Below are positions 812 through 61,702 of a stretch of 64,000 nt of DNA, one piece after another (the stretch's first letter is position 1; every line of letters starts with the position of its first letter). The notes beneath the pieces are model-generated. The model was given only the letters and a program-made list of their open reading frames with translations, was not told where the DNA came from and did no database searches. Both the position numbers and the translations under genes were made by a program. The stretch is from Bacillota bacterium (lineage in GTDB: Bacteria; Bacillota; Clostridia; Peptostreptococcales; Anaerovoracaceae): assembly GCA_016280485.1 (NCBI GenBank), contig JAEEGU010000051.1, positions 18,166 through 82,165 on the forward strand, read 5' to 3'.

Positions 812-1002
812 TTGACAGTCAATATGTTTTAGTATATACTATGTGTGTACTTTATGGAGATTTTACTGCTGTTATCAGCAGCTTCACGAAGTATTTTTTT
901 GTAATTCGGAGACACTTCCCTACTTGTGGGCGAGGTGTCTCTTTTTATTATATAAACTTTTTTATGTGCTTGTGTTGGACGCACAAGCAGAAAGGAGAAA
1001 AC
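812..1002 (+). promoter_or_regulatory. Leader-repeat copy E9: promoter + structured leader + intrinsic terminator + SD hairpin
   Basis: TTGACA 812-817, 17 nt, TATACT 835-840, then GTAC at 847. P1 arms 847-859 and 882-893 enclose the hairpin CTGCTG/CAGCAG at 866-881. Terminator hairpin 908-941 plus T5. Hairpin 967-989 (loop TTGGACG) abuts the AGAAAGGAG SD; ATG at 1003. Confidence 0.8.
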
Positions 1003-1335
1003 ATGAGAACACGGAAAATCTCTATTTTGGAGGGAATCGTGATCGCGGTTATGCTGATGATCATACTGATGATGATCGCAGACCTTGACGCAGCCTGTAT
1101 GAGCGCAGCAATCAAAAAGAGTCCTTTTCTGATCGCAGCATGTGCGGTATGCGCGGCCTTGAACAAGGCTCGCTCACGACAGGCATTCGAAAGATTCGTC
1201 AGGAGAGCCTATGAACGCAGCGCGAAGACAGTATCATATGTTGTCTTCAAGCGGCATAATATGGCACTCAAGTACCTGACAAAGGATGAAAGGCAGGAAT
1301 TTGTCTACCTGAGGGAGGTCATAGGACGAAGATGA
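1003..1335 (+). CDS. small membrane protein
   Basis: Internal ATG of ORF 841..1335, 8 nt after AGAAAGGAG. Contains a hydrophobic helix (ILEGIVIAVMLMIILMMIA). First gene after E9. Confidence 0.6.
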   Translation: MRTRKISILEGIVIAVMLMIILMMIADLDAACMSAAIKKSPFLIAACAVCAALNKARSRQAFERFVRRAYERSAKTVSYVVFKRHNMALKYLTKDERQEFVYLREVIGRR

Positions 1336-1742
1336 TCAACGAAAAGATCGGAAACATCTTCTATGACTCGGAACCTTGGGAGACATTTTTTATGCCCATT
1401 TCCGCTGATTACGAGTTGTCCGGCGCAAACATCATCCTGGATCGCATGTTTGGCGTCCAGAGAGCCCTGCAGGAAAGAGGCTACCACCTCTTTCCTGACG
1501 CGCTTCTTGTTGGCGGTGCGGTGGCTGTAATCACAAAACCGAGAAGGGAAAGCGCAATAGCGCTTCCCATGCTTCAAAAGTCTCTGCAGATTTGCTCGGA
1601 CGTCTGTAAACGGGAAGGGATTAAACACCTGGCGATGATTCCCTTACGGGATGATTCGCTTCCCTGGCCTGTTATTAGGCGAGCGGTTTCGGAGGAATTG
1701 AAAGATGTCACCGTAACGGTGTACAGGAAGGAGGTAAAATAA
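1332..1742 (+). CDS. hypothetical protein (weak, degenerate macro-domain-like pattern)
   Basis: ATGA overlap with the upstream stop. IGNIF... and IKHLAMIPL..LPWPVIRRAV loosely recall small macro domains, but the Gly-rich loops are absent, so the function call is low confidence. Confidence 0.6.
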   Translation: MINEKIGNIFYDSEPWETFFMPISADYELSGANIILDRMFGVQRALQERGYHLFPDALLVGGAVAVITKPRRESAIALPMLQKSLQICSDVCKREGIKHLAMIPLRDDSLPWPVIRRAVSEELKDVTVTVYRKEVK

Positions 1743-3551
1743 TTGGGCCAGATTTCCAAAAAGCTCTTTGAAGTCACCGGGGCTCGTAATGTTTCGAGCA
1801 CGTTCGCCAAGGAGTTTACTGAGACAGAAACATCAGCCAATGCCATTTCTGACTGGAACGTGAGCAGTCCCGGTATGAATTTTCTACGTGCCTCACGTCT
1901 GCTAAGAGACGGTGTCCTGGCAGTCGAAGCCTGGGTTTCCGCAAGCGTCGGCGCTCCCGTTCGTGACGTTGCTGTCATGCGGGTCAGCGACGACCTGATT
2001 AGTGCGGAATACGCACACAGAACGAGTGCCGCTACGGACGTCGTTGCGTTTAATAAGACGAACGGACTTCTCCTGGCGGCGAAAGTTGGAGCGACCGGGC
2101 GGTTTACTCAGCTCGGCTCCTTTGGCCAGTCGAAAACCGAGTCTGCCGCAAGCATCCTGTTTTGTTTGATTCCTGTTTTTCAGGAATTGAACCCGGCTTT
2201 CGATGCGGATATTCAGACTTTGGTTCGGTGGTATCCCAATCGAGTCAACAGCGCCGGCGATGTGACGTTTTCTGATGACGCAAAAAACGCTCTTTTCCGT
2301 ATCTGTGACGCTTTTTATCACGGCATTGTTCGGGATAACGTCAGAATCACAAATATGGATCAGAACGGAAACATTACCAAGCTGGAAAGAACTGACGTGG
2401 ATTCTCACGTCTACGACGGCATTCCTTTGCTGGGCGTACCGAGGATTCTGGTGGGCAGGCAGGTTTCGCTAAGAGGTAGCTGCTTGCTTCATGACGCACT
2501 TCTTGCGAATAAAAAACGCCGTGAGGAAAGCCTTGCGTCGCTCAGTCCGGAACAGCTTGCGGAGGTTCCTCATTCTCCTGATAACACGGTTGTTCCATCC
2601 TGGGTTACGGATATGGTCGAAAGCTTTTACGCGACCGAAAATACCCTGGAGCCCTTCAATAACTTCCGTGTTGAATCCGGAACCGGCGGTGGCAAAACCT
2701 TTGGTGTTCGGCTCATGGCCGAAATCATGGGCAAGCCGCTGAAAACACTCAATCTGGATCCGGACTCAGATAAAACGGAATTGAAGAGTCAGATCGTGCC
2801 GAACACGAAGTCCGGCGGATTTGCGATCCGGATGCCCTCTTTCCTGGATATCGTCAACGACCCTGTCAGCGCCTACGAAGACATTACAGGCGTTGAAAAG
2901 ATTGGTGTTTCCGTAGATGAATGCCAGGAGGCCTACAACAAGGCAATGGCCGGCGGCGACCAGGGTAAAGCATTCCGCCATATCCTTTCTCCCCTGATGC
3001 AGGGTCTCCAAGGCCCGTACATCGTGGAAATCCAGGAGATGTCAAGAGCTCGGGCCGGTGTGCTGTCCGGCTTAAACGAGGTGTTTGACCGAGACTCCGT
3101 GATCCACCTGGAAGGCTCCGGGGAGCAGTTCAAACGAAATCCGAAATCGATCGTTGTCTCAACGGATAACTTCGGATACTCCGGCTGTAAACCGATTTCC
3201 CCGGACGTTCGGCGCCGATTCTCCCACATTGAAAGGCTTCCTTCTCTTTCTGACGACGACGCCGTAACCCGTGCGATCCAGCGAACCGAGTTTGATGATC
3301 GTGCCCTGCTCAAGCAGATGTGGAAAATCATAAAGGAAGTAGCGAAGATCTGCCGAGAGAAGGATATTCGTGCCGGCGACGTCGGGCTTACGGAATTGAT
3401 CGCGTGGGCGATGAAGCTCAAGATCGGTGTGAACCGCACGGTGGCGTTCACCCAGACCGTTCTTACGCACGCCTCCGGCGACGATCAGGAGCAGAAAGAG
3501 ATCAATGATGCCATTATGGTTTCGCAGGCTGTCGGGCATTTCTTTGATTAG
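1743..3551 (+). CDS. AAA+ ATPase, MoxR/CbbQ/CobS-like (AAA_5 type)
   Basis: TTG start 9 nt after GGAGG. Walker A is ESGTGGGKT. The Walker B/sensor region is YIVEIQEMSRARAGVLSGLNEVFD. It is paired with a downstream VWA protein. Confidence 0.85.
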   Translation: MGQISKKLFEVTGARNVSSTFAKEFTETETSANAISDWNVSSPGMNFLRASRLLRDGVLAVEAWVSASVGAPVRDVAVMRVSDDLISAEYAHRTSAATDVVAFNKTNGLLLAAKVGATGRFTQLGSFGQSKTESAASILFCLIPVFQELNPAFDADIQTLVRWYPNRVNSAGDVTFSDDAKNALFRICDAFYHGIVRDNVRITNMDQNGNITKLERTDVDSHVYDGIPLLGVPRILVGRQVSLRGSCLLHDALLANKKRREESLASLSPEQLAEVPHSPDNTVVPSWVTDMVESFYATENTLEPFNNFRVESGTGGGKTFGVRLMAEIMGKPLKTLNLDPDSDKTELKSQIVPNTKSGGFAIRMPSFLDIVNDPVSAYEDITGVEKIGVSVDECQEAYNKAMAGGDQGKAFRHILSPLMQGLQGPYIVEIQEMSRARAGVLSGLNEVFDRDSVIHLEGSGEQFKRNPKSIVVSTDNFGYSGCKPISPDVRRRFSHIERLPSLSDDDAVTRAIQRTEFDDRALLKQMWKIIKEVAKICREKDIRAGDVGLTELIAWAMKLKIGVNRTVAFTQTVLTHASGDDQEQKEINDAIMVSQAVGHFFD

Positions 3552-3562
3552 GGGGTGGCAAG

Positions 3563-6115
3563 ATGATTACGACTCGCTTCCACCTGAACAACGAATTCTC
3601 CGACCGGGAATTATTTACCAGTGAAGAGTTCCGAAAGTACCTGGAAACATTATTGGAAAGCATGACCGGGAATCAATGCTACACGCTGAATCTTGTCCAT
3701 GATCCCAATGATGACAATCTCGGCTTCACGACCGGACAGCAGGTTTTTGTCAATACGGGGCACAAGTATGCCTCGTATTACAAAAAGCAGGAGCAGCGAT
3801 TCATGTACAATATGGCCACGTTCTTTCATGAAGTCGGTCATCTTCTGGATCCTGCTCTCCTGGGTGATTTCATGAAAACGCTTGCCGATATCAAGGCTGC
3901 GGTTCCATTTGTTCCGATTCCCCGCAAAGAGCTTATGGCTGCGTATAATGTCCTTACCGATAAGCGCTACACCGACTTGGTCTTTACGCTCGTCCAGTCC
4001 ATTATGAACATTGGACTGGACGCCCATGACGAGGAAGCTATTTCGGTGAACTACTCAGCTATGGTAGGACGCTGCCTCCGGTTGGCGCTTGGTGTCGACA
4101 AGGCAACGCACCTCACGCTGCAGCAAATGCGAGCTGCCGGCTGCTCCGAGATGGATATCCGAAATTCCCTGATTTTTGAGTATATCCGTTTTGGCGGCGA
4201 GGAAGGCTTGCTGGTCGAGGATACGGATGATAAATTGTCCGATCCCGCCTACCTTTTTGTGCAGAGCGTTAAGACACCGTTAGATGTCCTGAGATTTTCC
4301 GACGACGCCGATGCGCGAAGAGCTGCTGCCTTTGAGGTTTTTGCCGCTCTTTGGCCTGTGATTCTGCAGGAAATGCAGGACAGAGCCTCTCCCCCGCCCC
4401 AGCAATCTCCTTCGTCATCAGACGCAGGAGCGCAATGCGGTGAAGGAACGGAAGACGGGCAGGATTCCGATGGCAGCAATAATTCTGATTCTTCCCGGAG
4501 ACAGAACGGAAGCGATTCAAAACCAGATGCGTCAAATTCCGGGAAAGGAAACAGCGATTCTGGCCCCTCCCCTTCCCGGGATTCTTCCGGTGCGGCTGAA
4601 AACGACAGCCGGCAGAAAAATGATAATGCATCTGAAGCGGGCAGTCAGACCGGCAGCCAGGAGTCGAATTCAGAGGGAGGCAAACAGGATTCCTCGGGGA
4701 GCAGCGGCGCAGAAAGTCCTTCTGAAGACTGGGGAGGATCCCAGTCGAAAAAGAACGATTCAAACGCTGAGAACAGGAATCAAGCTGGTTCCCAAAATCC
4801 TTCCGGGAAAACAGATAAAACCGATTCATCCTCCGGTTCCAATGCTTCAGATTCTTCAAATGGCTCCGAAGGGCGAGAATTTGACGCGAATGGCAACGCT
4901 GCGGAAAACGGTCCTGCCGGACAGCAAGAGACCGGCTCAAATGCTGAGAAGGCCGGAAACGGGAAGAACTCGAAACCTGAACTGCAGAGCCGTCCCGAGT
5001 GGACTCCGGATCCTGATGTAATTTCTGATATCGTAAAGCAGATTAAAGAGATTGCACAGAGCTTCGAGACCAAGACTCCGGAAAAGACCGCTGGCAAATC
5101 AATCAAGGTCGATTCCAACTCCAGCGGGAAGGAGCAGGATGACCGCGGCGAGGAAATGGGCCGTTCAGCGTTTGAGAAGGTACTTCAGCAGCATGCGGCA
5201 AGCAAAGCGGAAGAATTAGCGGATAAGGAAGTAAATCAAGGAACAGATAAGGCAATAAAGGGAGTTATTAAAACCCTTGACGCAACTTCTCCGCATAAGA
5301 ATCTTCCTGTGTACACGCATCGATCAAATGTAACGCCCGAACTCCAAAGGCGGTATGAGCAGCTCGAATCCGAGCTTCATCCGGTTCGCCGCCGTCTGGT
5401 GGAAGAAATGCGGCGAATGTTCGAAGAACTCAGAGACGGTGCGACTTTGCGAAAGCGTTCCTACGGCCGCATCGATGCAAAGAACTTCCAGCGCGTCCCG
5501 ACAGATCAGAAGTTCTTTATGAAAAAGAAGGCGCCGCAGGATGTTCCGCATCTTGCAATCTGTGTTGTCGTAGACCGATCCGGCTCCATGACCTGTGGCG
5601 AAGAATGCAGCAGAATCTATTTTTGCTGCAGAGCGGCAATTCTTCTTGAGGGATTTGCCTCAGATCTGGATATTCCCATAATGGTCTGCGGTCATAATAC
5701 GGCAGCAAGGGGAATCAACTTCTATATATCCAGAGATTTTGAGGCTCCCAGAAGAAGCAAACGGGTGTTTGCGTTGGCAGATACTACCACGTCCGGATGC
5801 AATCGAGACGGCTATGCGTTTTTGATTGCCTCTGAACTTCTGGCCAAACGTCCGGAAGAAGATAAGCTGCTTATCATTCTCTCAGATGGTTGTCCGAATG
5901 ACGACTACTATGGAGGGGATTCTGCCGCCGAAGATATCCGTAATATCTTAAAGCGAGCCGAACGTAAAAACGGGATTGAAACAATCGCGTGCGCGTTCGG
6001 TGATTCAAAGGAACAAGTAAAAGAGATCTATGGTTCGAAATGTCTGGATATTTCGGATCTCTCCACGCTGCCCCGTACGCTTACCAAAATTGTGCGTGAG
6101 CGCTTGGAGGAATAA
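3563..6115 (+). CDS. metallopeptidase-like (HExxH) N-domain, long disordered linker, C-terminal VWA domain
   Basis: HEVGH motif (FFHEVGHLLD). About 230 aa of S/G/N/D/Q-rich low complexity. MIDAS-type VVVDRSGSM and LSDGCPND motifs. This is the classic partner of MoxR-type ATPases. Confidence 0.85.
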   Translation: MITTRFHLNNEFSDRELFTSEEFRKYLETLLESMTGNQCYTLNLVHDPNDDNLGFTTGQQVFVNTGHKYASYYKKQEQRFMYNMATFFHEVGHLLDPALLGDFMKTLADIKAAVPFVPIPRKELMAAYNVLTDKRYTDLVFTLVQSIMNIGLDAHDEEAISVNYSAMVGRCLRLALGVDKATHLTLQQMRAAGCSEMDIRNSLIFEYIRFGGEEGLLVEDTDDKLSDPAYLFVQSVKTPLDVLRFSDDADARRAAAFEVFAALWPVILQEMQDRASPPPQQSPSSSDAGAQCGEGTEDGQDSDGSNNSDSSRRQNGSDSKPDASNSGKGNSDSGPSPSRDSSGAAENDSRQKNDNASEAGSQTGSQESNSEGGKQDSSGSSGAESPSEDWGGSQSKKNDSNAENRNQAGSQNPSGKTDKTDSSSGSNASDSSNGSEGREFDANGNAAENGPAGQQETGSNAEKAGNGKNSKPELQSRPEWTPDPDVISDIVKQIKEIAQSFETKTPEKTAGKSIKVDSNSSGKEQDDRGEEMGRSAFEKVLQQHAASKAEELADKEVNQGTDKAIKGVIKTLDATSPHKNLPVYTHRSNVTPELQRRYEQLESELHPVRRRLVEEMRRMFEELRDGATLRKRSYGRIDAKNFQRVPTDQKFFMKKKAPQDVPHLAICVVVDRSGSMTCGEECSRIYFCCRAAILLEGFASDLDIPIMVCGHNTAARGINFYISRDFEAPRRSKRVFALADTTTSGCNRDGYAFLIASELLAKRPEEDKLLIILSDGCPNDDYYGGDSAAEDIRNILKRAERKNGIETIACAFGDSKEQVKEIYGSKCLDISDLSTLPRTLTKIVRERLEE

Positions 6116-6123
6116 AGCTCTTT

Positions 6124-6155
6124 CCCTCCCCCGCTATGGGGGAGGGTTCTTTTTT
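6124..6155 (+). terminator. intrinsic terminator of the AAA-VWA operon
   Basis: CCCTCCCCC/GGGGGAGGG hairpin followed by TTCTTTTTT, directly after the stop at 6115. Confidence 0.7.
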
Positions 6156-6170
6156 GCGCTCTATGTGGAG

Positions 6171-6199
6171 TTGACAGACCATTAAAAAAAGTATATAAT
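6171..6199 (+). promoter_or_regulatory. consensus sigma-A promoter
   Basis: TTGACA 6171-6176, 17 nt, TATAAT 6194-6199. GTAC again begins 6 nt after the -10. Confidence 0.7.
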
Positions 6200-6247
6200 C
6201 GTTTCGTACCAAAAGAGAGGAGGAAAGCGATATTTCGCTGGTGAATA

Positions 6248-7552
6248 ATGGAAGACAATAAGTATACAATTACCGACGAAGAGCTCGAACGGCTCCCGAT
6301 AAAAAAGTTGACAACGGGATCCGGCGGTACTCAGCAGTATGTACGGTATGACGAGGAAAGCGGGATCGCGTATCTGCTGGACTCTAAAATGAAATATACT
6401 GGCCGGGCCTCCAACATTAAAGGTTCGTTAATGCAGAAGTCGGAAGCCCAAACTCCGTCTGTGCAAAGCAAAAAAGAGGACAAGGATCCAAAGCCAAAAC
6501 GCAGTACGGTTAAGGCAGCCAAGAAAGAAAAAAATCCTCCGGATGTAACAGATCCGGAGGCGGAACTGGAAGCAAATGCCAGAAAGAAGAAACTGCTCGG
6601 CTTTGGATTGCTTGGCCTTGCTGGAATCGGCCTTCTTCTCTACCTGCTGTCGATCCTCGGAATACTTAACCCTTCCGGTCCCGCAAGCAACAAGCCTAAG
6701 CCAACAACTCCCGCAGACCCGGCGGCGGTTGATATCAAGGACTTGGCTGCTGCAGAAAAATATAACGTATTGATCTTTACCCGGAATATGTTCCAGGGAG
6801 ACGTTATTACGGAGGAAGACCTGGCCACCTTTGAGATGTCGAAAGCGGAATTCGCCGTCTGCGGCGGCGCCTATACCCTCGCCTGCAAGGACGCTGTGAT
6901 TGGCATGGAACTTACGAGATTTATGCCGTTCGGATCGGTTGCAGTATATGACTCCTGCGCCGCCAAGTCGAGCTTCCAGATTTCGCCGTGGTCGTCGCTG
7001 CCTGCCGGACAAAGTTACCTTGATGTGCCCGTTTCTCTGGTGCTCAAGGATCTGTCCGCTGTAATCCCCGGCGATTACGTCGATTTAACGATCAGCGTAA
7101 ACACGACTCGTTCCCAGGATTCTGAAGAAGCGGCGTCCAATACTGACGGAATGGAGCATACCTCTGCGGTTTCCGCATCGACGACCACCGATACATATCG
7201 TTTCGCCCGTATTTGCGTTGCAGATATTATTTTGCAGGACGGAACATCTTTTTACGCTACAATATCACGACTGTTCACTGTGCCGGACGGGTTCCTGCCT
7301 GCTGTTCTGCGGGACGAGTACAATGCGGAAACGATCGGCAATCTGGTGCCGAAGTATTATCGTTTTGTCGTCACAGACGCCCAGTTGTCCGAGATTGGCA
7401 CGATGCCGCCGGAAGCCACATCGGTAGACGCTGTTATGCTGGAGGAGTCTCAGAATCCGTATTTCCAAAACTTCTCCTCCAGGACGGATTACATCGTATC
7501 GCTGATTTGTCGGCGAAGCGAAGAAATTCAGCAGGAGGCCGACAATGAGTGA
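6248..7552 (+). CDS. CpaB/RcpC-like protein (N-terminal TM, SAF domain, beta-clip C-domain)
   Basis: TM helix LLGFGLLGLAGIGLLLYLLSILGIL. SAF-like segment NVLIFTRNMFQGDVITEEDL. IPGDYVDLTISV...ICVADIIL resembles the CpaB C-domain. Confidence 0.65.
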   Translation: MEDNKYTITDEELERLPIKKLTTGSGGTQQYVRYDEESGIAYLLDSKMKYTGRASNIKGSLMQKSEAQTPSVQSKKEDKDPKPKRSTVKAAKKEKNPPDVTDPEAELEANARKKKLLGFGLLGLAGIGLLLYLLSILGILNPSGPASNKPKPTTPADPAAVDIKDLAAAEKYNVLIFTRNMFQGDVITEEDLATFEMSKAEFAVCGGAYTLACKDAVIGMELTRFMPFGSVAVYDSCAAKSSFQISPWSSLPAGQSYLDVPVSLVLKDLSAVIPGDYVDLTISVNTTRSQDSEEAASNTDGMEHTSAVSASTTTDTYRFARICVADIILQDGTSFYATISRLFTVPDGFLPAVLRDEYNAETIGNLVPKYYRFVVTDAQLSEIGTMPPEATSVDAVMLEESQNPYFQNFSSRTDYIVSLICRRSEEIQQEADNE

Positions 7553-8066
7553 AGAAAAGACCTGGCCGAACCAGACTTCAGAGCCACCTCCCGAGCCGCC
7601 AGAGAATGCCGCTGTGCGCGATAGAGTAGAAGCAGCGAAAAGGGTGCTGTCTCACGATGAAAACGAAACATCCATGCCGGAGCCGCTTCTGAAGACCATT
7701 CTGATTGATCTGGCTTTGGCTTTTGGTATGCTTGCATTGGGCGTCGTTCTCACAATTCAGACCAAGAAAATATCGTATGCAGTGCCTCTGATTTTCTCCG
7801 CTTTTCTGGCATACCTGGCTCTTTCCATGCTGAGTGACTACCGTGCGGGAAAAATCCACGAACGGGTTTTGCTTTGCACTTCGGCAAACTCCAGTTTTCC
7901 GGGCTTTTCTGTCACAATGCAAACGACAGATAAAGAAGGGCCTGTTGACGTATTCAAGTTCTATTATCGCAATCGGAAATCTTGTCCGTTCAAAGAAGGG
8001 TACGTTTACGCTGTTTACACAAATGACAATCAGCCGCATCGAGTGATTGCCTGGAAAAACTTTTGA
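7545..8066 (+). CDS. membrane protein (2 TM)
   Basis: GGAGG SD. 8-nt overlap with the upstream gene. Two hydrophobic helices. Confidence 0.6.
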   Translation: MSEEKTWPNQTSEPPPEPPENAAVRDRVEAAKRVLSHDENETSMPEPLLKTILIDLALAFGMLALGVVLTIQTKKISYAVPLIFSAFLAYLALSMLSDYRAGKIHERVLLCTSANSSFPGFSVTMQTTDKEGPVDVFKFYYRNRKSCPFKEGYVYAVYTNDNQPHRVIAWKNF

Positions 8067-8082
8067 AAAAGGGAGAAAAGCA

Positions 8083-8283
8083 ATGGATACCGCGCAACAC
8101 ATACGAAACATTCGGGAGAGCGTCGGCCTCACCCAGGAAGAGTTTTCCAAAGCCTATGAGATTTCGCTGGAAACGCTGAAAGCGTGGGAGGACGGGCCCC
8201 AGCAGCCGCCGATCTATATTCTCAAAATGCTTGATTTGTACGTCAAGATATATCCTCCGGAAAAACTTGGAGCGCCTGATTGA
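8083..8283 (+). CDS. XRE-family HTH protein
   Basis: Internal ATG after the GGGAGAAAAG SD. IRNIRESVGLTQEEFSKAYEISLETLKAWE is a typical HTH_3 motif. Confidence 0.75.
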   Translation: MDTAQHIRNIRESVGLTQEEFSKAYEISLETLKAWEDGPQQPPIYILKMLDLYVKIYPPEKLGAPD

Positions 8284-10106: not shown

Positions 10107-10775
10107 CTACCTCCTTGTCCGGCCTGCCTTTCTCCGTGAATCAAACAAAGAAGGGTATTCTGCATCAAGGGCTTTCGCAATAATCTCATAATCCGGGTAA
10201 TGGTCTATGGATTTTGACGGAATCTCAATGAGCCGTTTTCGAAGCCTTTGATACGGAATGCCGGTGATTTCTGAAAGTTTGCGCATGGTGTAATGCTTGT
10301 AGCGCATGATTTTGATTACGTCTGGGAACTGAATGCTTCCAAGAGTTTGCTCCGTCGGCGTATTCTCGTGCCGTGGCGCTCTGGGAGCGTGGTATTCACT
10401 GAGGACTTCTACGGGAATTCCCGTAACATCGCTCAGCGCATTTGCGAGTTCGACGGGCATAGGCACTCCGTCAGAAACGAAAAGGGCTTTGTCGAGGGCC
10501 TCTGGCGTCCACCCGATCAGCTCCGCGAGCTCTTCAAGGGAGTACGTTGTTTTCTTGAACCATCTTCTAATCGCGGGATAAGGGCAGTTCCCGGGAAGGT
10601 GATTGTCGGTAAGACGGGAGAAAAACTTTGAGACGGCCTGACGTGTTACACCGTATCGCTCGCCAATCTCAGCCATGGACATTCCATCAATTCGCTTGGT
10701 GCAAATGTCGATTTTTACTTCTCGGGACATACATCCGGGGTTCATGAGCCGCCTATCGGTAATGTTCTTTTTCAT
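10107..10775 (-). CDS. multi-HTH DNA-binding protein (candidate regulator)
   Basis: Three HTH-like segments: MSMAEIGERYGVTRQAVSKF, YSLEELAELIGWTPEAL, YTMRKLSEITGIPYQRLRKRL. The start is uncertain because no adjacent SD is present. Confidence 0.65.
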   Translation of the reverse strand: MKKNITDRRLMNPGCMSREVKIDICTKRIDGMSMAEIGERYGVTRQAVSKFFSRLTDNHLPGNCPYPAIRRWFKKTTYSLEELAELIGWTPEALDKALFVSDGVPMPVELANALSDVTGIPVEVLSEYHAPRAPRHENTPTEQTLGSIQFPDVIKIMRYKHYTMRKLSEITGIPYQRLRKRLIEIPSKSIDHYPDYEIIAKALDAEYPSLFDSRRKAGRTRR

Positions 10776-11366: not shown

Positions 11367-14171
11367 TCATTCCTTTCGCTGCGACAATTCAAATTTCGGC
11401 CCATATTCTGATTGCTGGCTGTCGTCCAGGAAAATGGTTGCTGTAAACTTCGCTCCCTTCTTGATCTTTCCATTTTCTTCGGTATCTTTTTTTCTCAGCG
11501 TGGCTACTTTGATTTTTTCATGATTGATAAGCTTTTGGGCCATCTGGGGCGTGACTGTTGTGGCACGCATGATCCCGCCCTTTGCGTTTTTCTGAATGCT
11601 GAACTTACAACCGGCTGCGTAATTGTCGCAGCGATATGCGTACATTGTTTCACGGACATTTCCGCCGCATCTCCAGCAGGTTCCGACGCTCTCACAAAAG
11701 GCGTCGTCTGCTCGCATGACTCGCACCGTGCCATCGTCGAGCTTTTTCAGCGCTATAGAGCCGGGATAGTCCTTGTTTTTGTCCCGTGAATAGAGCGTAA
11801 CGCCTGATATTGTTTTTCCGGCAAGGAGTGACTTCGCCATGGTCTTCGTGATTTTGCAATGACAAAGCATTGTGTTTTCGAATCCTATTTTCGGGATAAG
11901 GAACTTACAGGGGGATGCAGCGTTCCAGTTCTTACATCCGTATCCAGACTTCCCTTCCAGTATGTCTCCACCGCACATAGGGCATTTCCCGATCACTTCC
12001 CGTTCCATAGAAACGGCGACGGAGAATCCGGATGAAGCGTCCCGGTTAATTGTAATGCTGCCGGGAAACATTCTTTCCTTTGCCTCAGACCACAGAGTTT
12101 TTACATACACGGTCTTCCCTTTTAACAGATTCTTAGCCATTGCTGGGGTTATGTTTGTTCTGCAGAGGATGCCCTTTCCGGCTTCTTTCCAGATGACGAA
12201 TTTGCATCCGTTTTTATAATTGCTGCAGCCATAACCTCTTTTGCCTTCAATCACATCCCCACCGCACCAGGGGCACTTCCCTACTACGGTGTGGCTGTTC
12301 GGACTCAACTGGGAAACGTCGAGCTTTGGGAAATCCTGAGTGAGCACTTCCCGAATCGACTCAAGCACCGATTCCGTCAGATCCGCAGGCGTTTTTTCCC
12401 CAGATATGATATCTTCCTGATATACCCACCATTGCGCTGTCAGATCCGCTTTTTTGAATTCATCCGGAAGGATCCTGTAAAATTCTCGTCCCTTTGGGGT
12501 TGAGACGATATTTTTACCTTCCATCGCGCAGTATCCGTCCGTTACAAGATCATCGACGATCTGGACGCGAGTTGCGTCCGTTCCGATAGAGCCGTTTGCA
12601 CCCTCTTTTTCCGCGTCCTTCTGGAGCAGCAGTTCCTTGATGTACGGATCGTCCACATATCGGGCGATTCTCGTCATGTCCTCAATCAGAGACGCCTTCG
12701 TGTATTTGGGCTTTGGCCGTGTCGCGCATTCCTTTACTTCAGAATCCTGAACAAAAGCGGCACATCCACCAGCCGGTATGCGGCACAGATCGGACGGGAG
12801 ATCCTCTTCTTCCTCCTCAGCGTCTTTCCCGAGCAGAGAAAGAAAGCCAGGCAATATGATTTCGGTTGCGGTAGCCCGAAGCTGGGCTCCGTCCGGGAGC
12901 GGTATTTCAAGAATTGTTTTTTCCTTCTTCGCGTTGGGCAAAAATTGCGCCAGATAATAATTTGCGATCGCGGTATATACGTTGCGCTCCTGCGCGGTCA
13001 TAATATTGACATCTACCGTTTTGCCGGAGGGAATGATCGCAAAGTGTGCTGTTATTTTAGAATCATCAAAACACCTTGATTTGATCGTCATATCCAGCGG
13101 CAGGTTTATTCCCAGGCTGTTCATGGTGGCAACGGTTGTCCTGGGCGCCTCATTGTAGTGCTCTTCCGATAGATACTGGCAGTCTGTCCGGTTATAGGTA
13201 ATTGCTTTGTACTTATCTCGAAGCGTTTGGGTGATTTCCAGTGTGTCTTGCGGCGAATAACCGAATCTTGATGAACAAAAAGATTGTAATTTTGTGAAGT
13301 TAAACGGAAGCGGAGGCTTTGACGTGATCGACTTTTTCTCTACGTTTCCGGGACCTCGGAATAAATTGACCAAGTCCTGTTTCTCTTCTGCGTAGGACTT
13401 ATCCTGGATCATTCCGTCAGTAAGATTCGGATCGCCCTCGACTGGAATATACTTCGCTGTTACTGCAGGCCCATTATTGACCTGTACGGAACATTTCACC
13501 TCGTAGTAGTACGTCGGCTGGTGGTTTGCGATCAGCGCGTCACGGGCAACTACAAGGCCCAGCGTGGGGCATTTCACCCGGCCTACCGGGAGAAACATTC
13601 CGTTCAGCGAAGAAAAGAATCTGGAAAGATTGACTCCGACCTCCATATCGGCAACGGCCCGGGCATAAGCGGCCCAACCCATTGGCTCCCACTTTTTGTT
13701 GTCAAACAGATTGTTGAGGGCCTTTACAAGCGCTTCCTGCGTGGTGTTCCTCGTATCGAGTCGCTTGACGTTTCCGGAATAGTGATGCCATCTCAGCAGT
13801 TCGTCAACAAGCAGTTGGCCCTCGTTGTCCGGGTCCCCGGCATGAATGACCGTATCCGATTGGCGAAGCAGATCTCCAATCATGGAAACCCGCCGTGCAT
13901 ACTCGTTGTCTCCCGATCGATCCCGAGGCTGCTTTACCCGCATTCCCCAGTCCGGAAAGTAAATCGGCAGCTTTGAAAGATCGCTCTTGTTGGCCATGGC
14001 CGGGTCGTAATCTTCCGGCTCTTTCAGCTCAAGAAGGTGTCCAAACAGCCAGGTTACACGGTATTCCCCCACGCTGAAGAAATCATTTCCAACCTTTTTT
14101 GCTGTACCAGGAAGAGCGAAGGCGATGTCTTTGGCCAAAGAAGGTTTCTCGGCGATTACCAAACAATTCAA
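11367..14171 (-). CDS. topB: type IA DNA topoisomerase (Topo III-like) with three C-terminal Zn-ribbon repeat units
   Basis: Toprim N-terminus LVIAEKPSLAKD and GDPDNEGQ. The C-terminus has three units of CPxCGG...GYGC..Y...CKF plus a repeat. TTG start after GGAGG. Confidence 0.93.
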   Translation of the reverse strand: MNCLVIAEKPSLAKDIAFALPGTAKKVGNDFFSVGEYRVTWLFGHLLELKEPEDYDPAMANKSDLSKLPIYFPDWGMRVKQPRDRSGDNEYARRVSMIGDLLRQSDTVIHAGDPDNEGQLLVDELLRWHHYSGNVKRLDTRNTTQEALVKALNNLFDNKKWEPMGWAAYARAVADMEVGVNLSRFFSSLNGMFLPVGRVKCPTLGLVVARDALIANHQPTYYYEVKCSVQVNNGPAVTAKYIPVEGDPNLTDGMIQDKSYAEEKQDLVNLFRGPGNVEKKSITSKPPLPFNFTKLQSFCSSRFGYSPQDTLEITQTLRDKYKAITYNRTDCQYLSEEHYNEAPRTTVATMNSLGINLPLDMTIKSRCFDDSKITAHFAIIPSGKTVDVNIMTAQERNVYTAIANYYLAQFLPNAKKEKTILEIPLPDGAQLRATATEIILPGFLSLLGKDAEEEEEDLPSDLCRIPAGGCAAFVQDSEVKECATRPKPKYTKASLIEDMTRIARYVDDPYIKELLLQKDAEKEGANGSIGTDATRVQIVDDLVTDGYCAMEGKNIVSTPKGREFYRILPDEFKKADLTAQWWVYQEDIISGEKTPADLTESVLESIREVLTQDFPKLDVSQLSPNSHTVVGKCPWCGGDVIEGKRGYGCSNYKNGCKFVIWKEAGKGILCRTNITPAMAKNLLKGKTVYVKTLWSEAKERMFPGSITINRDASSGFSVAVSMEREVIGKCPMCGGDILEGKSGYGCKNWNAASPCKFLIPKIGFENTMLCHCKITKTMAKSLLAGKTISGVTLYSRDKNKDYPGSIALKKLDDGTVRVMRADDAFCESVGTCWRCGGNVRETMYAYRCDNYAAGCKFSIQKNAKGGIMRATTVTPQMAQKLINHEKIKVATLRKKDTEENGKIKKGAKFTATIFLDDSQQSEYGPKFELSQRKE

Positions 14172-19704: not shown

Positions 19705-19826
19705 TTTAGATTTTTCGTATCGACTATTTTTTGAATATTTTTGATTTTTCTCTTGACAAAACGACTTATTCTGTTCTATGGTTATCGTAGATTAAGAAAT
19801 TAAACACAAAGAACGGAGGTAACATC

Positions 19827-20189: not shown

Positions 20190-20218
20190 ATTACCCAATA
20201 GAAAATTCGCACTAAAAA

Positions 20219-20250: not shown

Positions 20251-20263
20251 CTTATGATATGGA

Positions 20264-49800: not shown

Positions 49801-50760
49801 TTAAGGCGCCTCCTCTCCGGAAGGGTTTGCTGCGGCATTATTCCAGAAGGGATACTGGTCATTCGGGAGACCAATCGCTTCCCACAGATCAACCAGAACT
49901 GGATGATTACCTTCGACGATCTCCATTCTGAAATCCGGATCGTCCATGACGTAATCCACTTCTCCTCCAAGATCGTAGAACCTGTTTTTGAGTTCGCCGA
50001 GCTTATTGAAGACGCTCTGCTTGATCGCAATCCCGCTGGAATAACACGAGACGTCGAATGCTTTGAACATCCGCCTGATCGTATCAATCGCTTCATCCGG
50101 GACGACAACAGCCGGCCAGGAAGCAGCCAATGATGCCTTCAGCGGGTTGTTCTGATACCGGCGGGACAGCTCTGCCCACAGTTCCTTTTCGGAGACACGG
50201 GAAAGATCCTGGTGCTTCTCCAGATGCGGAACGGCCTCGATTCGCCAGGATCGGGGATCGTAGTCGTCCGGATCCTCGTCCATCGGAACCTCACCGTCCC
50301 AATCTTCCGCCGTATCCTTGACGAAAGTGAGCAACTTCTGCGCCTCCTTTTCAGTAGCACAGGCCGCCAGGACGGTTGTTGCCGGAGCAGCCGAACAGTA
50401 ATGTTTTCCTTCCGTGTACTCGCTCTGGTCGATTTCTTCCAGAACGAGCCAGACTCGCTTCCCAAGCGAATCAGAAAGCGCAGCGAATTCCTCTTCGGAC
50501 ATTTCCTCAACTTTACCGACGGCGACGTTTTCGAACACACCATCGGATATCTGCCCGTCGAGCTCCGCTCTGCACAGTTCCTCGGTGTTCCTCGTAATTC
50601 GAATGATCGTGTACTCATTCGTTCCGGACTTATCGGAATTAACGAGTTCCACGATTCTCGTGATGCCATCCTTCGACCAATCATAAACGACAGACGGCTC
50701 GAAGGAAATCTTCTGTCTATGGCCGTCTCTGCCATAGACCTTCCATTGTCTTGTTTTCAT
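49801..50760 (-). CDS. hypothetical protein
   Basis: Internal ATG after AAGGAGGAG, overlapping the upstream stop as ATGA. 319 aa, acidic. Confidence 0.6.
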   Translation of the reverse strand: MKTRQWKVYGRDGHRQKISFEPSVVYDWSKDGITRIVELVNSDKSGTNEYTIIRITRNTEELCRAELDGQISDGVFENVAVGKVEEMSEEEFAALSDSLGKRVWLVLEEIDQSEYTEGKHYCSAAPATTVLAACATEKEAQKLLTFVKDTAEDWDGEVPMDEDPDDYDPRSWRIEAVPHLEKHQDLSRVSEKELWAELSRRYQNNPLKASLAASWPAVVVPDEAIDTIRRMFKAFDVSCYSSGIAIKQSVFNKLGELKNRFYDLGGEVDYVMDDPDFRMEIVEGNHPVLVDLWEAIGLPNDQYPFWNNAAANPSGEEAP

Positions 50761-51521
50761 TTTTGCTCCTCCTTGTATCCGGGCAGCATCTTCCCTGCCC
50801 ACATGAAAGCATTGACGTATTCTGCGGGAACAGGGGGATAGTCTTCGGAAAAATACTTCTTAAAAAGCGCAGCTTTTCTCCCTTTGAGATACGCCAGCGC
50901 TTCTTCTTCTGTTTGGAAACGGGTCTCCCGATCGATTATCACGATTCTGCTATCGCGGCACTTTCCTGGCAACACTTGCTGAAGGCAGATATCGTAATTC
51001 ACTTCCCACGGTTTTTTCTGGTATCGATTCTCGTCAATGGAGATCGTAGCGTGGTAGACAGCGTTACTGATTGTCCATATCGGATTTCTGTATCCAGCAG
51101 GATTCGTTACGCCTGTCGTCCACTCTCGGTAGAATTCAACGGGTTCCCACTCACGGTACTGCTTGGCCGCTTCAAGGCAGCGCAGCTTGTACACGTTCGC
51201 AGCCAAGGCGTCCGCCGTTTCGCGCAGGCTTTTGGCCAAAAGCTCTTTCCGTTCCTGGAACTGCTTTATCTCCACGTCAAGCTCAACCATGGGTGAAGAG
51301 TCGTTGAGCAGGCTGCCCATATCCACGAAGGTATCGTGCAGACAACCTGGTGTAAGGGTACTCAACTTGATGTTGATGTCGCGGTATATTTTGAGTTCTT
51401 CTCTGCTGTCAAACAAATTGTCCTTATTCGCTCCGCGAACAGCTTTGAAATCCCCTTTGAACAGTTCGTTCATTTCATCCGCGGTGGCAAACATCAGCGA
51501 CGACCAGCTTATTTTTTTCAT
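50757..51521 (-). CDS. hypothetical protein
   Basis: AGGAAGGGA SD. ATGA overlap with the upstream gene. 254 aa. Confidence 0.6.
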   Translation of the reverse strand: MKKISWSSLMFATADEMNELFKGDFKAVRGANKDNLFDSREELKIYRDINIKLSTLTPGCLHDTFVDMGSLLNDSSPMVELDVEIKQFQERKELLAKSLRETADALAANVYKLRCLEAAKQYREWEPVEFYREWTTGVTNPAGYRNPIWTISNAVYHATISIDENRYQKKPWEVNYDICLQQVLPGKCRDSRIVIIDRETRFQTEEEALAYLKGRKAALFKKYFSEDYPPVPAEYVNAFMWAGKMLPGYKEEQK

Positions 51522-53814: not shown

Positions 53815-54017
53815 CTTTTTCCTTTCTCCCACGCTGTCCAGGCGTGGGCTTCTGTCGTTGGCTTTTCTTCTTTCTATATGTAAAAAGAGACCTTCCCCAT
53901 GATTCTTGGGTGAAGATCTCTCAATTACGGAATTTTACTTCGTGAAGTCCCAATCTGGGCAGTAATAATCTTCATAAAGTACATTGATAGTATATACTAT
54001 TGTTTACGCAAAGTCAA
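53815..54017 (-). promoter_or_regulatory. Leader-repeat copy E7
   Basis: Minus strand: TTGACT 54017-54012, 17 nt, TATACT 53994-53989, GTAC 53982-53979. Terminator hairpin 53921-53886 plus U5. SD hairpin 53848-53828 with loop CUGGACAG. The U-linker is altered to AAAAUUCCGUAAUU. Confidence 0.8.
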
Positions 54018-57077: not shown

Positions 57078-57455
57078 TCAAATCTGGTGCGTCCGTACCC
57101 ATTCCAACAACGCATCATAATCCATCTGGCCTGCAGCAACCGCAAGCCCTGTGTCTGCAACTTCGCGGTTTGTGCAATCCATGTGAATGCCATTGACCTC
57201 CAGAAATGTCAGCATCACATACATCCCAATCCTTTTGTTGCCGTCAACGAAAGCGTGATTGGAAATTAAAGTAAATCCGATTCTGGCTCCTTTCTCAACT
57301 TTGGTTGGGTAGAGCTCCTTCCCGTCAAATGTTGCAAATGCACCGTCCAGAGCAGATTCCAGGAGGCCTTCATCTCGAATTCCGACGCTGCCGCCGGTCT
57401 CTTGCGCAATCAATTGATGCAGCAGCTTCACCTTTTCGGAAGAGAATCGTATCAT
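57078..57455 (-). CDS. doc: Doc/Fic-family toxin
   Basis: Fic motif HAFVDGNKRIG. ATGA overlap with the upstream antitoxin gene. Confidence 0.88.
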   Translation of the reverse strand: MIRFSSEKVKLLHQLIAQETGGSVGIRDEGLLESALDGAFATFDGKELYPTKVEKGARIGFTLISNHAFVDGNKRIGMYVMLTFLEVNGIHMDCTNREVADTGLAVAAGQMDYDALLEWVRTHQI

Positions 57456-57694
57456 TTTGCCAGCTCCTCGAATGCGGGTTTGAATTTCTTCAGAATTCGT
57501 GCGGCAACGATGTCGATTTTCTCGTCGTCCGTCATGTCCAGCAAAGGAGATTGATCCACGTCAAGCAGGATATATTTGGGACGGTTATTTTTGAAAATCA
57601 CAGCTTGTCCGTTCCGATCTGCAATCCGTGTCACACGGGAAAAGTTTTGATTCGCTTCACTTACCGAGACAATGGAATTGGTATCAATGTTCAT
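57452..57694 (-). CDS. phd: Phd/YefM-type antitoxin
   Basis: 80 aa. The N-terminus SVSEANQNFSRV...AVIFKNNRPKYILL is typical of the family. GGAGG SD. Confidence 0.8.
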   Translation of the reverse strand: MNIDTNSIVSVSEANQNFSRVTRIADRNGQAVIFKNNRPKYILLDVDQSPLLDMTDDEKIDIVAARILKKFKPAFEELAK

Positions 57695-60952: not shown

Positions 60953-60964
60953 CGTTATACCCCC

Positions 60965-61501
60965 TTACCGTTCTTCCGTGTTCCGCACAAACCACATAAT
61001 GTCGTGGTTGTAAACTTCCACAAGAATTTTGTTGAGCGCATCATATGCCTCTTTTGTAAGGGCGCATTTCGGATCAGCCAGAGCCTCAGATATTTTCCGC
61101 TCGAATTCATGCTGACAAACCAACCAGGATTTAGGCGGTTCAGGAATCTTCCCATGCAGGCCATCAGAAACGGCTTCCGCCAAATCCCAGATCTTGCGTT
61201 CTTCTTCCTCAATATCTCTGATCAGAGAAAACAGATCCGGGACACCGGAAAGGCCATTTTCTTTCGCCTCCAGGTAGGCTTTGACCTCTTCCTCTGCGTC
61301 GAAGTCATTGTATCTTTCGCGCAGGAGTCCTGGAATGTCATCCAGCTTTGAGTAAAACTCAATATAGTTGAGTTCACGACCAATGCTGGTAAATCCGGAG
61401 AACTCAACATATTTGTTTTTCTTGCCGTTCCCCTCTTGCGTTTTGAATGCAGCGTTGAAGTCGAGAGCGTTTACTGCGGCTTCAATTGTTCGTTTTCCCA
61501 T
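60965..61501 (-). CDS. hypothetical protein (first gene after E8)
   Basis: ATG follows the AGAAAGGAAAAAAA of E8. 178 aa. Confidence 0.65.
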   Translation of the reverse strand: MGKRTIEAAVNALDFNAAFKTQEGNGKKNKYVEFSGFTSIGRELNYIEFYSKLDDIPGLLRERYNDFDAEEEVKAYLEAKENGLSGVPDLFSLIRDIEEEERKIWDLAEAVSDGLHGKIPEPPKSWLVCQHEFERKISEALADPKCALTKEAYDALNKILVEVYNHDIMWFVRNTEER

Positions 61502-61702
61502 TTTTTTCCTTTCTGCTCACTTGTCCCTGTGAGCCGTCTTTGTGTCCTATCTTCGTGCTATATATAAAAAAGAGACCTTCCCTACTTCCGTAGAAAAGAT
61601 CTCCTGATTACAAAAAAATACTTCGTGAAGGTGCCGTTTTAGGCACTGATAATCCTTCATAAAGTACAATGATAGTATATATTATTTTTTGTGTAATGTC
61701 AA
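61502..61702 (-). promoter_or_regulatory. Leader-repeat copy E8
   Basis: Minus strand: TTGACA 61702-61697, 17 nt, TATACT 61679-61674, GTAC 61667-61664. Terminator hairpin 61604-61571 plus U6. SD hairpin 61534-61515 with loop AGGGACAA. The 3' ~75 nt are nearly identical to E3. Confidence 0.8.

Follow-up and report, generated by a model that had tools for sequence, protein, structure and literature searches.

We analysed a stretch of 64,000 nucleotides (hereafter the window; positions 18,166 to 82,165 of contig JAEEGU010000051.1, assembly GCA_016280485.1) from a Bacillota bacterium of the family Anaerovoracaceae, in which a short promoter-leader module is repeated nine times. Folded alone, each leader gives a 5'-terminal hairpin (P1) with a small variable hairpin inside it, a long hairpin (T) that leads into a run of U residues and, mostly, a third hairpin (P3) touching the Shine-Dalgarno sequence (SD) of the next gene. 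The initial annotation of this DNA, made from the letters alone, had placed nine such copies at the head of almost every operon. This was borne out: boundaries derived independently, running from the -35 hexamer up to, but not including, the start codon, reproduced every pair of coordinates, and the nine modules stand at nine multi-gene units comprising about 70 open reading frames (ORFs). Eight of these units are encoded on the minus strand and one on the plus strand, the two orientations converging at ~8.2 kb. The units devoid of a module are a few plus-strand genes, an Xre-type helix-turn-helix (HTH) gene and a gene for a 326-aa protein; of these, the HTH gene, the 326-aa gene and the plus-strand gene 27688-28203 have near-consensus promoter-like sites.

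The pattern GTACTTTATGRAG-N18-45-CAYGAAGTA has exactly nine matches in the 64 kb, all of them module copies, against an expectation of 0.00 (100 dinucleotide-preserving shuffles). A covariance model built from the RNA part (R1) scores the nine copies at 97-125 bits, the next-best match in the window reaching 19 bits, and a MAFFT alignment of the nine intervals gave blocks of invariant columns in the order first described; alignment and covariance model, both suggested with the initial annotation, agree with it. The modules are 190-250 bp long, with a G+C content of 34-42% as against ~49% in their surroundings. Pairwise identity is 57-83% within the window and 50-71% between elements, so that the copies cluster by element; the 3' halves of the copies at 31.1, 40.0 and 61.5 kb are near-identical.

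Copy 1 (812-1002) is the only one on the plus strand. Its promoter (TTGACA-17-TATACT) occupies 812-840, the transcription start (+1) would be the G at 847, P1 spans 847-894 and T with its U-run 909-946, and the SD at 990-996 precedes a start codon at 1003. The positions of +1, T and SD are predictions from sequence here and in all other copies, which are read from the minus strand and for which the limits of T likewise include the U-run. Copy 2 (19459-19704) is the longest and has an extra insert of ~50 nt before the SD; it comprises the promoter at 19676-19704 (TTGACA-17-TATAAT), +1 at 19669, P1 at 19621-19669, T at 19570-19606, the SD at 19465-19471 and the start codon at 19458. The corresponding features of copy 3 (25502-25710) lie at 25682-25710 (promoter), 25675 (+1), 25623-25675 (P1), 25569-25607 (T), 25510-25516 (SD) and 25501 (start codon), and those of copy 5 (36969-37159) at 37131-37159, 37124, 37076-37124, 37028-37060, 36976-36982 and 36968. 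The remaining five copies have a P3 with a GGAC loop between T and the SD. These are copy 4 (31133-31329; promoter 31301-31329, +1 31294, P1 31246-31294, T 31198-31231, SD 31139-31145, start codon 31132), copy 6 (40007-40205; promoter 40177-40205 with TTGACT, +1 40170, P1 40123-40170, T 40072-40108, SD 40013-40019, start codon 40006), copy 7 (47858-48055; promoter 48027-48055, +1 48020, P1 47972-48020, T 47923-47956, SD 47864-47870, GTG start codon 47857), copy 8 (53815-54017; promoter 53989-54017 with TTGACT, +1 53982, P1 53935-53982, T 53882-53920, SD 53820-53826, start codon 53814) and copy 9 (61502-61702; promoter 61674-61702, +1 61667, P1 61618-61667, T 61566-61603, SD 61507-61513, start codon 61501).

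All 22 distinct copies (nine in the window and 13 in the related elements described below) read TTGAC(A/T)-17-TATA(A/C/T)T-N6-GTAC. In the window this takes the annotated form, i.e. a -35 TTGACA (TTGACT in two copies), a 17-nt spacer and a -10 TATACT (TATAAT in the copy at 19.6 kb), with GTAC exactly 6 nt past the -10 in 9/9 copies. Judged by these hexamers, the predicted promoter is essentially the sigma-A/sigma-70 consensus. It is preceded by an A-rich tract; otherwise nothing is conserved upstream of the -35 or between the -35 and the -10. The sequence AGTATATACT, which can be extended to a 14-bp palindrome (ATAGTATATACTAT), is kept in 6-8 of the nine window copies and in the copy at position 6325 of the related locus L020; most copies from other elements lack the palindrome and carry GATATATAATC, TTGTATAATC and similar sequences instead. 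No second promoter between T and the SD was detected by a promoter scan, and inspection by eye revealed no hexamer with A2 and T6 there.

In modules of the TATACT type a weak antisense promoter (TTCATA-16-TATACT) can be read on the plus strand, at 25664-25691, 31283-31310, 37113-37140 and 40159-40186 (TATATT in the 40.0 kb copy). It arises because AGTATATACT is palindromic and the TATGAA of the P1 5' arm reads TTCATA on the opposite strand, and it is probably a by-product, absent from the TATAAT-type copies of other elements. In two copies, at 0.8 kb (ATTGACAGTCAAT, 810-822) and 31.3 kb (TTATTGACACCTGTTCAATAA, 31313-31333), the -35 hexamer lies within a copy-specific palindrome that the other copies lack.

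Hairpins of the leader RNA

P1 comprises the first ~48-53 nt of the predicted transcript and consists of a conserved base and a freely varying inner hairpin. In 15-18 of the 18 copies, each of positions 1-11 has a partner in the 3' arm, with the exception of position 8 (6/18). Of the two irregularities pointed out at the outset, the U.G pair falls at position 7 and is invariant in the window, and the A x C mismatch, at position 8, is present in 8/9 window copies. Elsewhere, position 7 is U-A (L019 and L020) or C-G (two other copies) and position 8 is A-U. The 5' arm, GUACUUUAUGA, is near-invariant (2/11 positions vary, versus 9/11 in the 3' arm), and pairing is kept. The inner hairpin had been described as changing in sequence while remaining complementary, and indeed both sides have changed at 5/5 modelled pairs; its apical loops are different in every copy. 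The U-rich linker reported after P1 is present in eight of the nine window copies and missing from the copy at 53.8 kb, which has AAAAUUCCGUAAUU.

A trans-acting antisense RNA against the P1 5' arm finds no counterpart in the window, where no complementary site occurs beyond the modules' own complementary strand (a single unrelated match with one mismatch lies at 5512-5522). A leader peptide was also considered and rejected: the ORF starting from the AUG at +8 ranges from 6 to 52 codons, and the AUG is missing in two copies.

The annotated long hairpin with its U-run was recovered in the window copies with 11-14 pairs, zero spacing, U5-6 and a folding free energy (dG) of -16.6 to -23.3 kcal/mol. 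Zero spacing between T and a run of U5-7 is common to the 18/18 copies examined in detail (dG -10 to -23 kcal/mol), and stems have 9-14 pairs across the 22 copies. By its anatomy T is a canonical intrinsic terminator on the sense strand, which would end a transcript of ~100 nt; its end lies 97-109 nt from +1 in 22/22 copies, this being the predicted size of the terminated RNA. The initial annotation had listed the hairpin without identifying it as a terminator. With this identification the module becomes a promoter, a terminated RNA of ~100 nt and a gene, in that order, and its mechanistic reading changes.

Terminators of B. subtilis average 9 +/- 2 pairs (PMC10325885), and T stems are longer. 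The stem sequence is conserved within an element and different between elements (GAGAGAUCUUUCC, CAGACAACUUUUC, CAGACAUUUUUCC, GAGAGACCGUCC, AACACCUUC), the hairpin and U-run being always retained, and pairs 1, 6 and 8-12 show full compensatory switches (e.g. GC to CG, AU to CG and UA to CG). The loops of T vary freely. The sequence AUAUAUAG, directly after the U-run, is conserved in several lineages.

The final hairpin had been attributed to every copy. It was found in 7/9 window copies, ending 0-1 nt before GAAAGGA. Considering other elements as well, a P3 with an invariant GGAC loop occurs in 12/18 copies, ends 0-7 nt (usually 1) before GAAAGGA and displays 11 different stem sequences around the loop; the more distant lineages L018, L034 and L037 lack it. 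We therefore regard P3, from its distribution, as an accessory part, and the promoter, P1 and T as the core. Its placement beside the SD suggests an additional layer of control over translation or stability. With a GGA in the hairpin loop and a second GGA in the SD, P3 may be comparable to the operators of CsrA/Rsm proteins, which are bound by a CsrA dimer; only some loops fit A(N)GGA, and the window scans revealed no csrA gene. The GAAGA-rich stretch of the initial annotation exists, as a feature of the window copies only.

That selection acts on the RNA, in the sense orientation, had been claimed from compensatory changes and G.U pairs, and both lines of evidence hold. In an alignment of 17 copies, 91.7% of the cells at paired columns can pair, compared with 48-55% when partners are slid by 1-3 columns, and 14 pairs change on both sides. 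Extended to 22 copies of seven lineages, the alignment has 88.7% of cells paired (45-52% with slid partners), and 19/35 pairs, with 97 cells, are changed on both sides; 0/500 shuffles reach any of the five measures used. Compensatory changes thus became more numerous with the 13 copies of other elements. Both alignments were fitted to the covariance model, and separate ungapped tabulations of P1, T and P3 agree with them. G.U cells outnumber A.C cells by 80 to 12 (17-copy alignment), which assigns the structure to the sense RNA. On these alignments, the module is a well-supported RNA motif with three covarying hairpins and unusually clean covariation, in an architecture that is undescribed.

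The view, also put forward at the outset, that it belongs to no named RNA or mobile-element family stood up to comparison. A search of the whole window against Rfam 15 gave 0 matches at the gathering threshold, and in E-value mode only inconsistent sub-threshold ones. The best of the Rfam matches, to the PyrR attenuator, was rejected, since it scored 22 bits against a gathering threshold of 54 (E = 0.52) and did not recur in the copies of L020 and L017. No mobile-element family could be assigned either: terminal inverted repeats are absent (three copies with flanks), and in every copy the boundaries are the -35 hexamer and the start codon.

Related elements and the genes behind the modules

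The 13 distinct copies outside the window were found with covariance models R1 and R2. They belong to related metagenomic elements of at least six lineages and lie at L017 724, 6992 and 9813; L018 8925, 15430 and 20151; L019 126 and 5871; L020 6325 and 14088; L034 1834 and 7307; and L037 174. These lineages were reached through homologues of the window ParB protein (73%, 55% and 39% identity for L017, L018 and L037, respectively) and of its DUF5983 proteins (L019, L020-23, L024-25, L034-36 and L038). Every copy is sense-oriented, with a gene directly after it; among the genes downstream are three more parB genes, YodL-DUF3846 and a gene for an RNA_pol_A_CTD-domain protein. The genes behind the modules are shuffled between elements and the module is retained. 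Its architecture is conserved in at least seven lineages whose ParB proteins are 34-73% identical. A type IV secretion system (T4SS) coupling protein is encoded in L018 and PcfJ in L034. The same DNA as in the window is present on contigs of JGI metagenome 3300041006.

Other searches did not extend this set, and the module is rare. Exact-pattern scans gave 0 matches in viral sequences, 8 in genomes (596 Gb) and 6 in metagenomes, all single and none multi-copy, ~8 being expected by chance on a rough estimate. A looser pattern of promoter plus GTACTT retrieved only three unrelated promoters from viral contigs, and nothing relevant emerged from phage and plasmid collections, whether queried by megablast with 24 kb or by blastn with a single module (including a 'distant' search of 72,556 plasmids, without a match). 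Viral contigs searched with ParB and with the 317-aa protein as seeds contained no relatives. Among the contigs of the related elements, L019 ends in a Cas9 gene (19774-20749), and L017 carries an IS200-type Y1 transposase gene (13414-13809) between the parB operon and a gene for a 1828-aa SpaA adhesin.

The plus-strand operon of copy 1 (1003-8283) encodes a small membrane protein, an AAA_5/MoxR-like protein, a CobT-type VWA protein, a small HTH_3 protein and others; the MoxR-like AAA_5 ATPase (602 aa) and the VWA protein (850 aa) form a pair at 1743-6115. All other module-headed operons are on the minus strand. Copy 2 precedes genes for a 392-aa protein, YqaJ, a RecD2-like helicase, topoisomerase III, YdjM, an HTH protein and others, and copy 3 precedes those for a single-stranded-DNA-binding protein (SSB), an HD/TraI_2-like 412-aa protein, DUF1848 and a dCMP deaminase. 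A 317-aa protein and three more uncharacterised gene products are encoded behind copy 4, a ParB_N/HTH_ParB protein of 781 aa (34623-36968) with six more genes behind copy 5, and a 170-aa protein with small proteins, including a zinc-ribbon protein, behind copy 6. The operon of copy 7 contains genes for a PARP-domain ADP-ribosyltransferase-like protein of 491 aa, an HD protein, YodL-DUF3846 and ~10 more, and that of copy 8 genes for a 312-aa protein, LPD34, a 333-aa protein and an N6/N4 DNA methylase. Copy 9, which lies directly downstream of sortase/pilin genes, heads an operon for 178-aa and 321-aa proteins and two DUF5983 proteins. Inside the same operon a Fic/Doc toxin gene (57078-57455) adjoins a Phd/YefM-like antitoxin gene (57452-57694; weak Pfam match, JGI annotation), both on the minus strand.

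The sortase/pilin genes directly upstream of copy 9 (61739-63973, minus strand, continuing at L026 524-2656) code for two sortases, an LPXTG SpaA-type protein and a GramPos_pilinD1 pilin, and by these domains are a sortase-assembled pilus or adhesin locus. Loci of this kind are found on Firmicutes conjugative elements. Together with ParB, topoisomerase III and the coupling protein of L018, they indicate that the element is probably a conjugative element of Firmicutes (Clostridia). Its unidirectional block of genes for SSB, ParB, methylase and polyvalent-protein-type domains corresponds to published descriptions of leading-region anti-defence islands (PMC11541004).

The dCMP/cytidine deaminase-domain protein (20264-21097), the DUF1848 protein (21733-22467) and the PARP-domain protein (46382-47857) are all encoded on the minus strand in module-headed operons, and the related elements L018, L019, L020 and L034 add NADAR, MazG and NAD-dependent DNA ligase. 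This set looks like a candidate anti-defence toolkit. The N6/N4 methylase, too, might bear on defence, and LPD34, YodL-DUF3846 and DUF5983 are domains often met with in conjugative elements. The 333-aa protein of the copy 8 operon (49801-50802, minus strand) has no Pfam domain itself, and is 30% identical to a 229-aa protein of L018 (15604-16293) with an RNA polymerase alpha-subunit C-terminal domain (alpha-CTD; PF03118). The L018 gene lies directly behind a module copy, and a similarly annotated 229-aa protein is encoded in a module operon of L034 (2978-3667). Proteins of this type may be transcription-related accessory proteins. A conserved protein of ~65 aa (MYVRGQGMLVGVFSFAEIREG...) is encoded in the window (40284-40478, minus strand), in L017 (6645-6833), in L018 (9755-9943) and in L020 (~19963); in the window and in L017 its gene is closely followed by the next module, and in L018 it directly precedes parB.

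Two Xre-type genes are the main candidate regulators in the window; parB and an HTH/sigma-r4-like gene (10107-10775) are further candidates for a trans-acting factor. Transcriptional-regulator/HTH_3 matches occurred among the 52 proteins scanned against Pfam, PHROGs and NCBIfam, and of these the 78-aa protein is the one with an independent HTH_3 annotation. The 78-aa Xre/HTH_3 protein (8047-8283, plus strand; weak HTH_3 in the annotation of L028, 9813-10049) is the product of the last gene of the copy 1 operon and, by analogy with Reg576 of plasmid p576, is a candidate autoregulated regulator of the modules, linked to them by position only. The 172-aa Xre-family HTH_3 protein (26991-27509, minus strand) is surrounded by near-consensus, non-module promoter-like sites on both strands (27603-27631, TTGACT-17-TATAAT, on the plus strand; 27509-27481 and 26850-26822 on the minus strand) and by a strong terminator (26906-26870). 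The segment 26800-27700 may thus be a switch-like region, with the 172-aa protein as a candidate regulator, possibly the master regulator of the element.

Read-through as a candidate control point

We propose, with a probability of roughly 55%, that the modules mark a co-regulated 'establishment' regulon in which read-through of T is the shared control point. In this scheme, host sigma-A RNA polymerase would initiate at the G of GTAC, the promoter being a near-perfect consensus behind an A-rich tract, and the first ~48-53 nt of the transcript would fold into P1. The U-rich, TTNTTT-like tract that follows would be a plausible site of NusG/NusA pausing. NusG-dependent pausing in B. subtilis takes place at the motif TTNTTT, to which the U-tract after P1 conforms, and such a pause would be compatible with a checkpoint. 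The long-stem T would then stop most transcripts at about +100, and only polymerases that read through would reach the SD, mostly preceded by P3. A perfect promoter followed by a strong terminator at a fixed distance of ~100 nt implies that expression of the operons would depend on read-through, and since P1 and T are common to all operons, one factor or condition acting on read-through, or on the stability or translation of the read-through RNA, could set all nine. A very strong promoter would be kept harmless in the resident state in this way, and the regulon would provide what is required as soon as the DNA has entered the cell, namely ssDNA and DNA processing, partition-like functions and anti-defence.

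Three options can be considered. A factor not recognisable here, or a host factor, might act through P1, by analogy with the LoaP hairpin and N/nut. Alternatively, T might be a constant, partial barrier that damps the promoter and blocks transcription arriving from the upstream operon, the on/off switch being a repressor at the palindromic -10/start region. As a third option, the ~100-nt RNA might itself be a product. The more specific idea that P1 and T form a new compact device, in which the GUACUUUAUGA hairpin and an unrecognised factor decide on the passage of the long-stem T (and the ~100-nt RNA might also act), is one that we advance only tentatively. If true, it would be a single post-initiation switch for the whole establishment and anti-defence regulon of a conjugative element.

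Several points weigh against read-through control. The promoter, the +1 and termination at T are predictions from the sequence, and the leading-region or establishment status of the genes is inferred from their content. Among the window proteins (~60 compared individually with Pfam, and 52 further Pfam-negative or unscanned ones with Pfam, PHROGs and NCBIfam), no antiterminator, NusG paralogue, Q/N-like, ANTAR or CsrA protein or RNA-binding family was recognised. The window yielded neither an oriT nor a relaxase, and the JGI contigs, which extended it by <2 kb per end, reached neither T4SS nor relaxase genes. A conserved antiterminator pairing was not found: candidates range in dG from -1 to -8 kcal/mol and in z-score from -2.9 to +1.7, and a z-score below -2 is confined to the two copies of L019, whose pairing is absent from other lineages. 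The alternative pairing GAAGUAUUUUUU:GAGAGAUCUUUC, spotted by eye, was rejected as too weak and not conserved. A classical attenuator that switches between two folds is therefore not supported. Conservation of the P1 5' arm beyond the needs of pairing hints at recognition as DNA or as a single strand. Finally, long-stem terminators reportedly resist at least one processive antitermination system, conAn (PMC10325885), which is awkward for antitermination through P1; the resemblance of T stems to such resistant terminators favours an insulator role.

The most serious competitor is control of initiation. Here the modules would be repressor-controlled promoter cassettes of the EGeRS2/Reg576 or RK2 KorA type, with an element-encoded Xre-type repressor binding over the -10 and the start, at the 14-bp palindrome ATAGTATATACTAT and/or the invariant GTACTTTATGA. 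Zygotic induction in a repressor-free cell would switch the operons on, and P1, T and P3 would only damp, insulate and stabilise. A near-perfect consensus promoter needs restraint, the AGTATATACT/ATAGTATATACTAT palindrome exceeds what sigma-A contacts require, and the DNA from +1 to +11 is near-invariant while its pairing partner drifts. Two Xre-type genes are available, one of them last in a module-headed operon, and the precedent has been established experimentally in p576 (PMC6294495). The palindrome is, however, missing from most copies of other elements, no conservation apart from the A-tract exists between the -35 and the -10 or upstream of the -35, and the Reg576 operator motif is absent (5 window matches with three mismatches versus 5.2 expected, none in a module). 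A repressor also leaves a full terminator at a fixed ~100 nt in 22/22 copies unexplained. We rank the post-initiation checkpoint at T first and consider repression less probable, though of substantial weight; the two are not exclusive.

The constant distance of T can also be read in another way, with the ~100-nt RNA as the main product, i.e. a multi-copy, highly expressed small RNA (sRNA) that would, for instance, titrate a host RNA-binding protein, an RNase or a defence system as a sponge or decoy, and the operons living on read-through. With its consensus promoter and a strong terminator at a constant 97-109 nt the unit is built like an sRNA gene, and protection of both ends by hairpins would give a stable RNA. 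Chaperone-binding sRNAs have a similar layout, namely a 5' hairpin, an A/U-rich single strand, a terminator hairpin and a U tail. We nevertheless find this improbable, because none of the 22 copies is free-standing and all are fused, in sense and at a short conserved distance, to a downstream SD; moreover, the sole conserved single-stranded stretch is the U-run, with no obvious seed, and the loops of P1 and T vary freely.

Far less credible is a function as an ssDNA element of the Frpo/ssi or sso type, in which the transferred strand would fold into hairpins that provide a promoter or priming site while its complement is still to be synthesised. In leading regions, ssb and anti-defence genes are typically preceded by repeated Frpo-like elements (PMC11541004); here, one module heads ssb, the genes are unidirectional and the hairpins fold as DNA too. 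In DNA folds of both strands of copy 4, though, the -10 is unpaired and the -35 is paired only in the copy-specific 8-bp hairpin, most of it lying outside any intrastrand duplex; the promoter has the ordinary consensus of duplex DNA. The template strand folds worse than the sense strand (z -1.8 versus -2.4), the 80 G.U cells would be A.C mismatches on it, and no sequence similarity was found in 72,556 plasmids. The ssDNA-promoter explanation is thus largely refuted in silico.

We likewise dismiss a selfish or neutral repeat, MITE-like (miniature inverted-repeat transposable element) or a promoter segment that recombination has multiplied and kept uniform, the copies having no regulatory role in common: clustering by element implies gene conversion or recent spread in each element, and the near-identical 3' halves at 31.1, 40.0 and 61.5 kb fit this, yet the copies, bounded by the -35 and the start codon, lack terminal inverted repeats and target duplications, functional elements and pairs are kept by compensatory change at an identity of only 57-83%, the architecture persists in at least seven lineages with ParB 34-73% identical, and the exact-pattern singletons found elsewhere are never multi-copy and fit ~8 chance matches.

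Comparison with known systems

Terminators act as checkpoints or insulators in other Gram-positive conjugative elements (canT of Tn916, PMC11658703; pLS20, PMC8191782 and PMC13401043). The module follows the order of promoter, hairpin, terminator and genes seen in leaders that are read by antiterminators (LoaP of dfn/mln, PMC12691694; lambda N/nut; HK022 put; Tn916 canT-T1, PMC11658703), and the order of promoter, RNA hairpin, intrinsic terminator and genes of conAn and the zipper attenuator cATT of pLS20 (PMC8191782, PMC13401043). All of these (LoaP, N/nut, put, canT, conAn and cATT) differ from it in being present in a single copy per operon set, as opposed to nine copies. LoaP, furthermore, needs a hairpin with a UNCG tetraloop and a NusG paralogue, whereas P1 loops vary and no NusG/KOW family occurs among the scanned window proteins, although a NusG paralogue could lie outside the 64-kb window. 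In size, the module RNA is far exceeded by the canT RNA (341-452 nt) and by that of conAn, an RNA element described as large. The zipper attenuator requires complementarity between the sequence upstream of a long stem and the terminator, and the module has no such conserved pairing.

The Frpo/ssi repeats of F, ColIb-P9 and other leading regions (PMC11541004), which are Gram-negative analogues, are similar in being dispersed repeats of a few hundred bp that head ssb, anti-restriction and other unidirectional leading-region genes. An Frpo promoter, unlike the module, is a folded transferred single strand, a test in which the module fails, and the two share no sequence similarity. The CUP repeats of IncN plasmid pKM101, which Delver and Belogurov are said to have described in 1997, are reportedly dispersed repeats of Gram-negative plasmids that head leading-region genes under the control of ArdK; they too have no sequence similarity to the module.

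The closest parallels are the EGeRS repeats of the pLS20 family, the subject of two papers of the Meijer laboratory (Val-Calvo et al. 2018, PMC6294495; 2021, PMC8708921). EGeRS2, known from p576 (pLS20-family clade II), has a strong sigma-A promoter flanked by Reg576 operators and is present in four copies in that plasmid (PMC6294495, PMC8708921). Like the module, it is a conserved repeat with a sigma-A promoter upstream of separate, mosaic establishment operons, its copies are 50-68% identical, and it defines a regulon. The module shares the multiple copies before establishment-type operons and, as judged from its hexamers, the consensus sigma-A promoter. By contrast, EGeRS2 is short and has dual TTATCCC heptamer operators for a ribbon-helix-helix (RHH) repressor, Reg576, whereas the module has a transcribed leader of ~150-200 nt with three covarying hairpins, one of them T, and shares no sequence similarity with EGeRS2. 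The dual heptamer operator TTATCCCnnTTATCCC was not found in the modules (its 5 window matches, with three mismatches, compare with 5.2 expected), and no RHH family occurs among the scanned proteins.

EGeRS1, from pLS20, pBS72 and relatives, is 420-750 bp long, has a G+C content of 51% (plasmid 38%) and many hairpins, and lacks a detectable sigma-A promoter (PMC8708921). It resembles the module in being repeated (five copies in pLS20) and structured and in ending at the ribosome-binding site of establishment operons; its copies also cluster by plasmid, and the genes downstream are highly variable. EGeRS1 blocks transcription from upstream in an orientation-specific manner (PMC8708921), and the same is predicted for the module, whose T, present on the sense strand only, would block read-through from upstream. 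The shuffling of genes behind the modules matches the mosaic establishment operons behind the EGeRS repeats of pLS20-family plasmids (PMC8708921). On the other hand, the module is shorter (190-250 bp), less G+C-rich than its surroundings and equipped with a consensus promoter, and in place of the >60% identity to pLS20 EGeRS1 expected of a member, one copy gave no match in the 'distant' blastn search of 72,556 plasmids.

The general phenomenon, a repeat in front of establishment operons of Gram-positive conjugative plasmids, is already published (PMC6294495, PMC8708921). The switching of establishment and anti-defence genes in Gram-positive conjugative elements has, however, been worked out for only one Bacillus plasmid family, and the module provides a marker that delimits such a regulon (~70 mostly uncharacterised genes) in uncultured elements of the Clostridia type. 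Its RNA motif could be registered as a family, with which further elements could be detected, and the cassette is a compact, portable promoter-leader unit. To conclude, the module, as read from its sequence, combines an EGeRS2-like promoter with an EGeRS1-like structured leader that would block read-through, and has the defining features of neither; it represents a third architecture besides EGeRS1 and EGeRS2, in which a consensus promoter is coupled to a built-in terminator.

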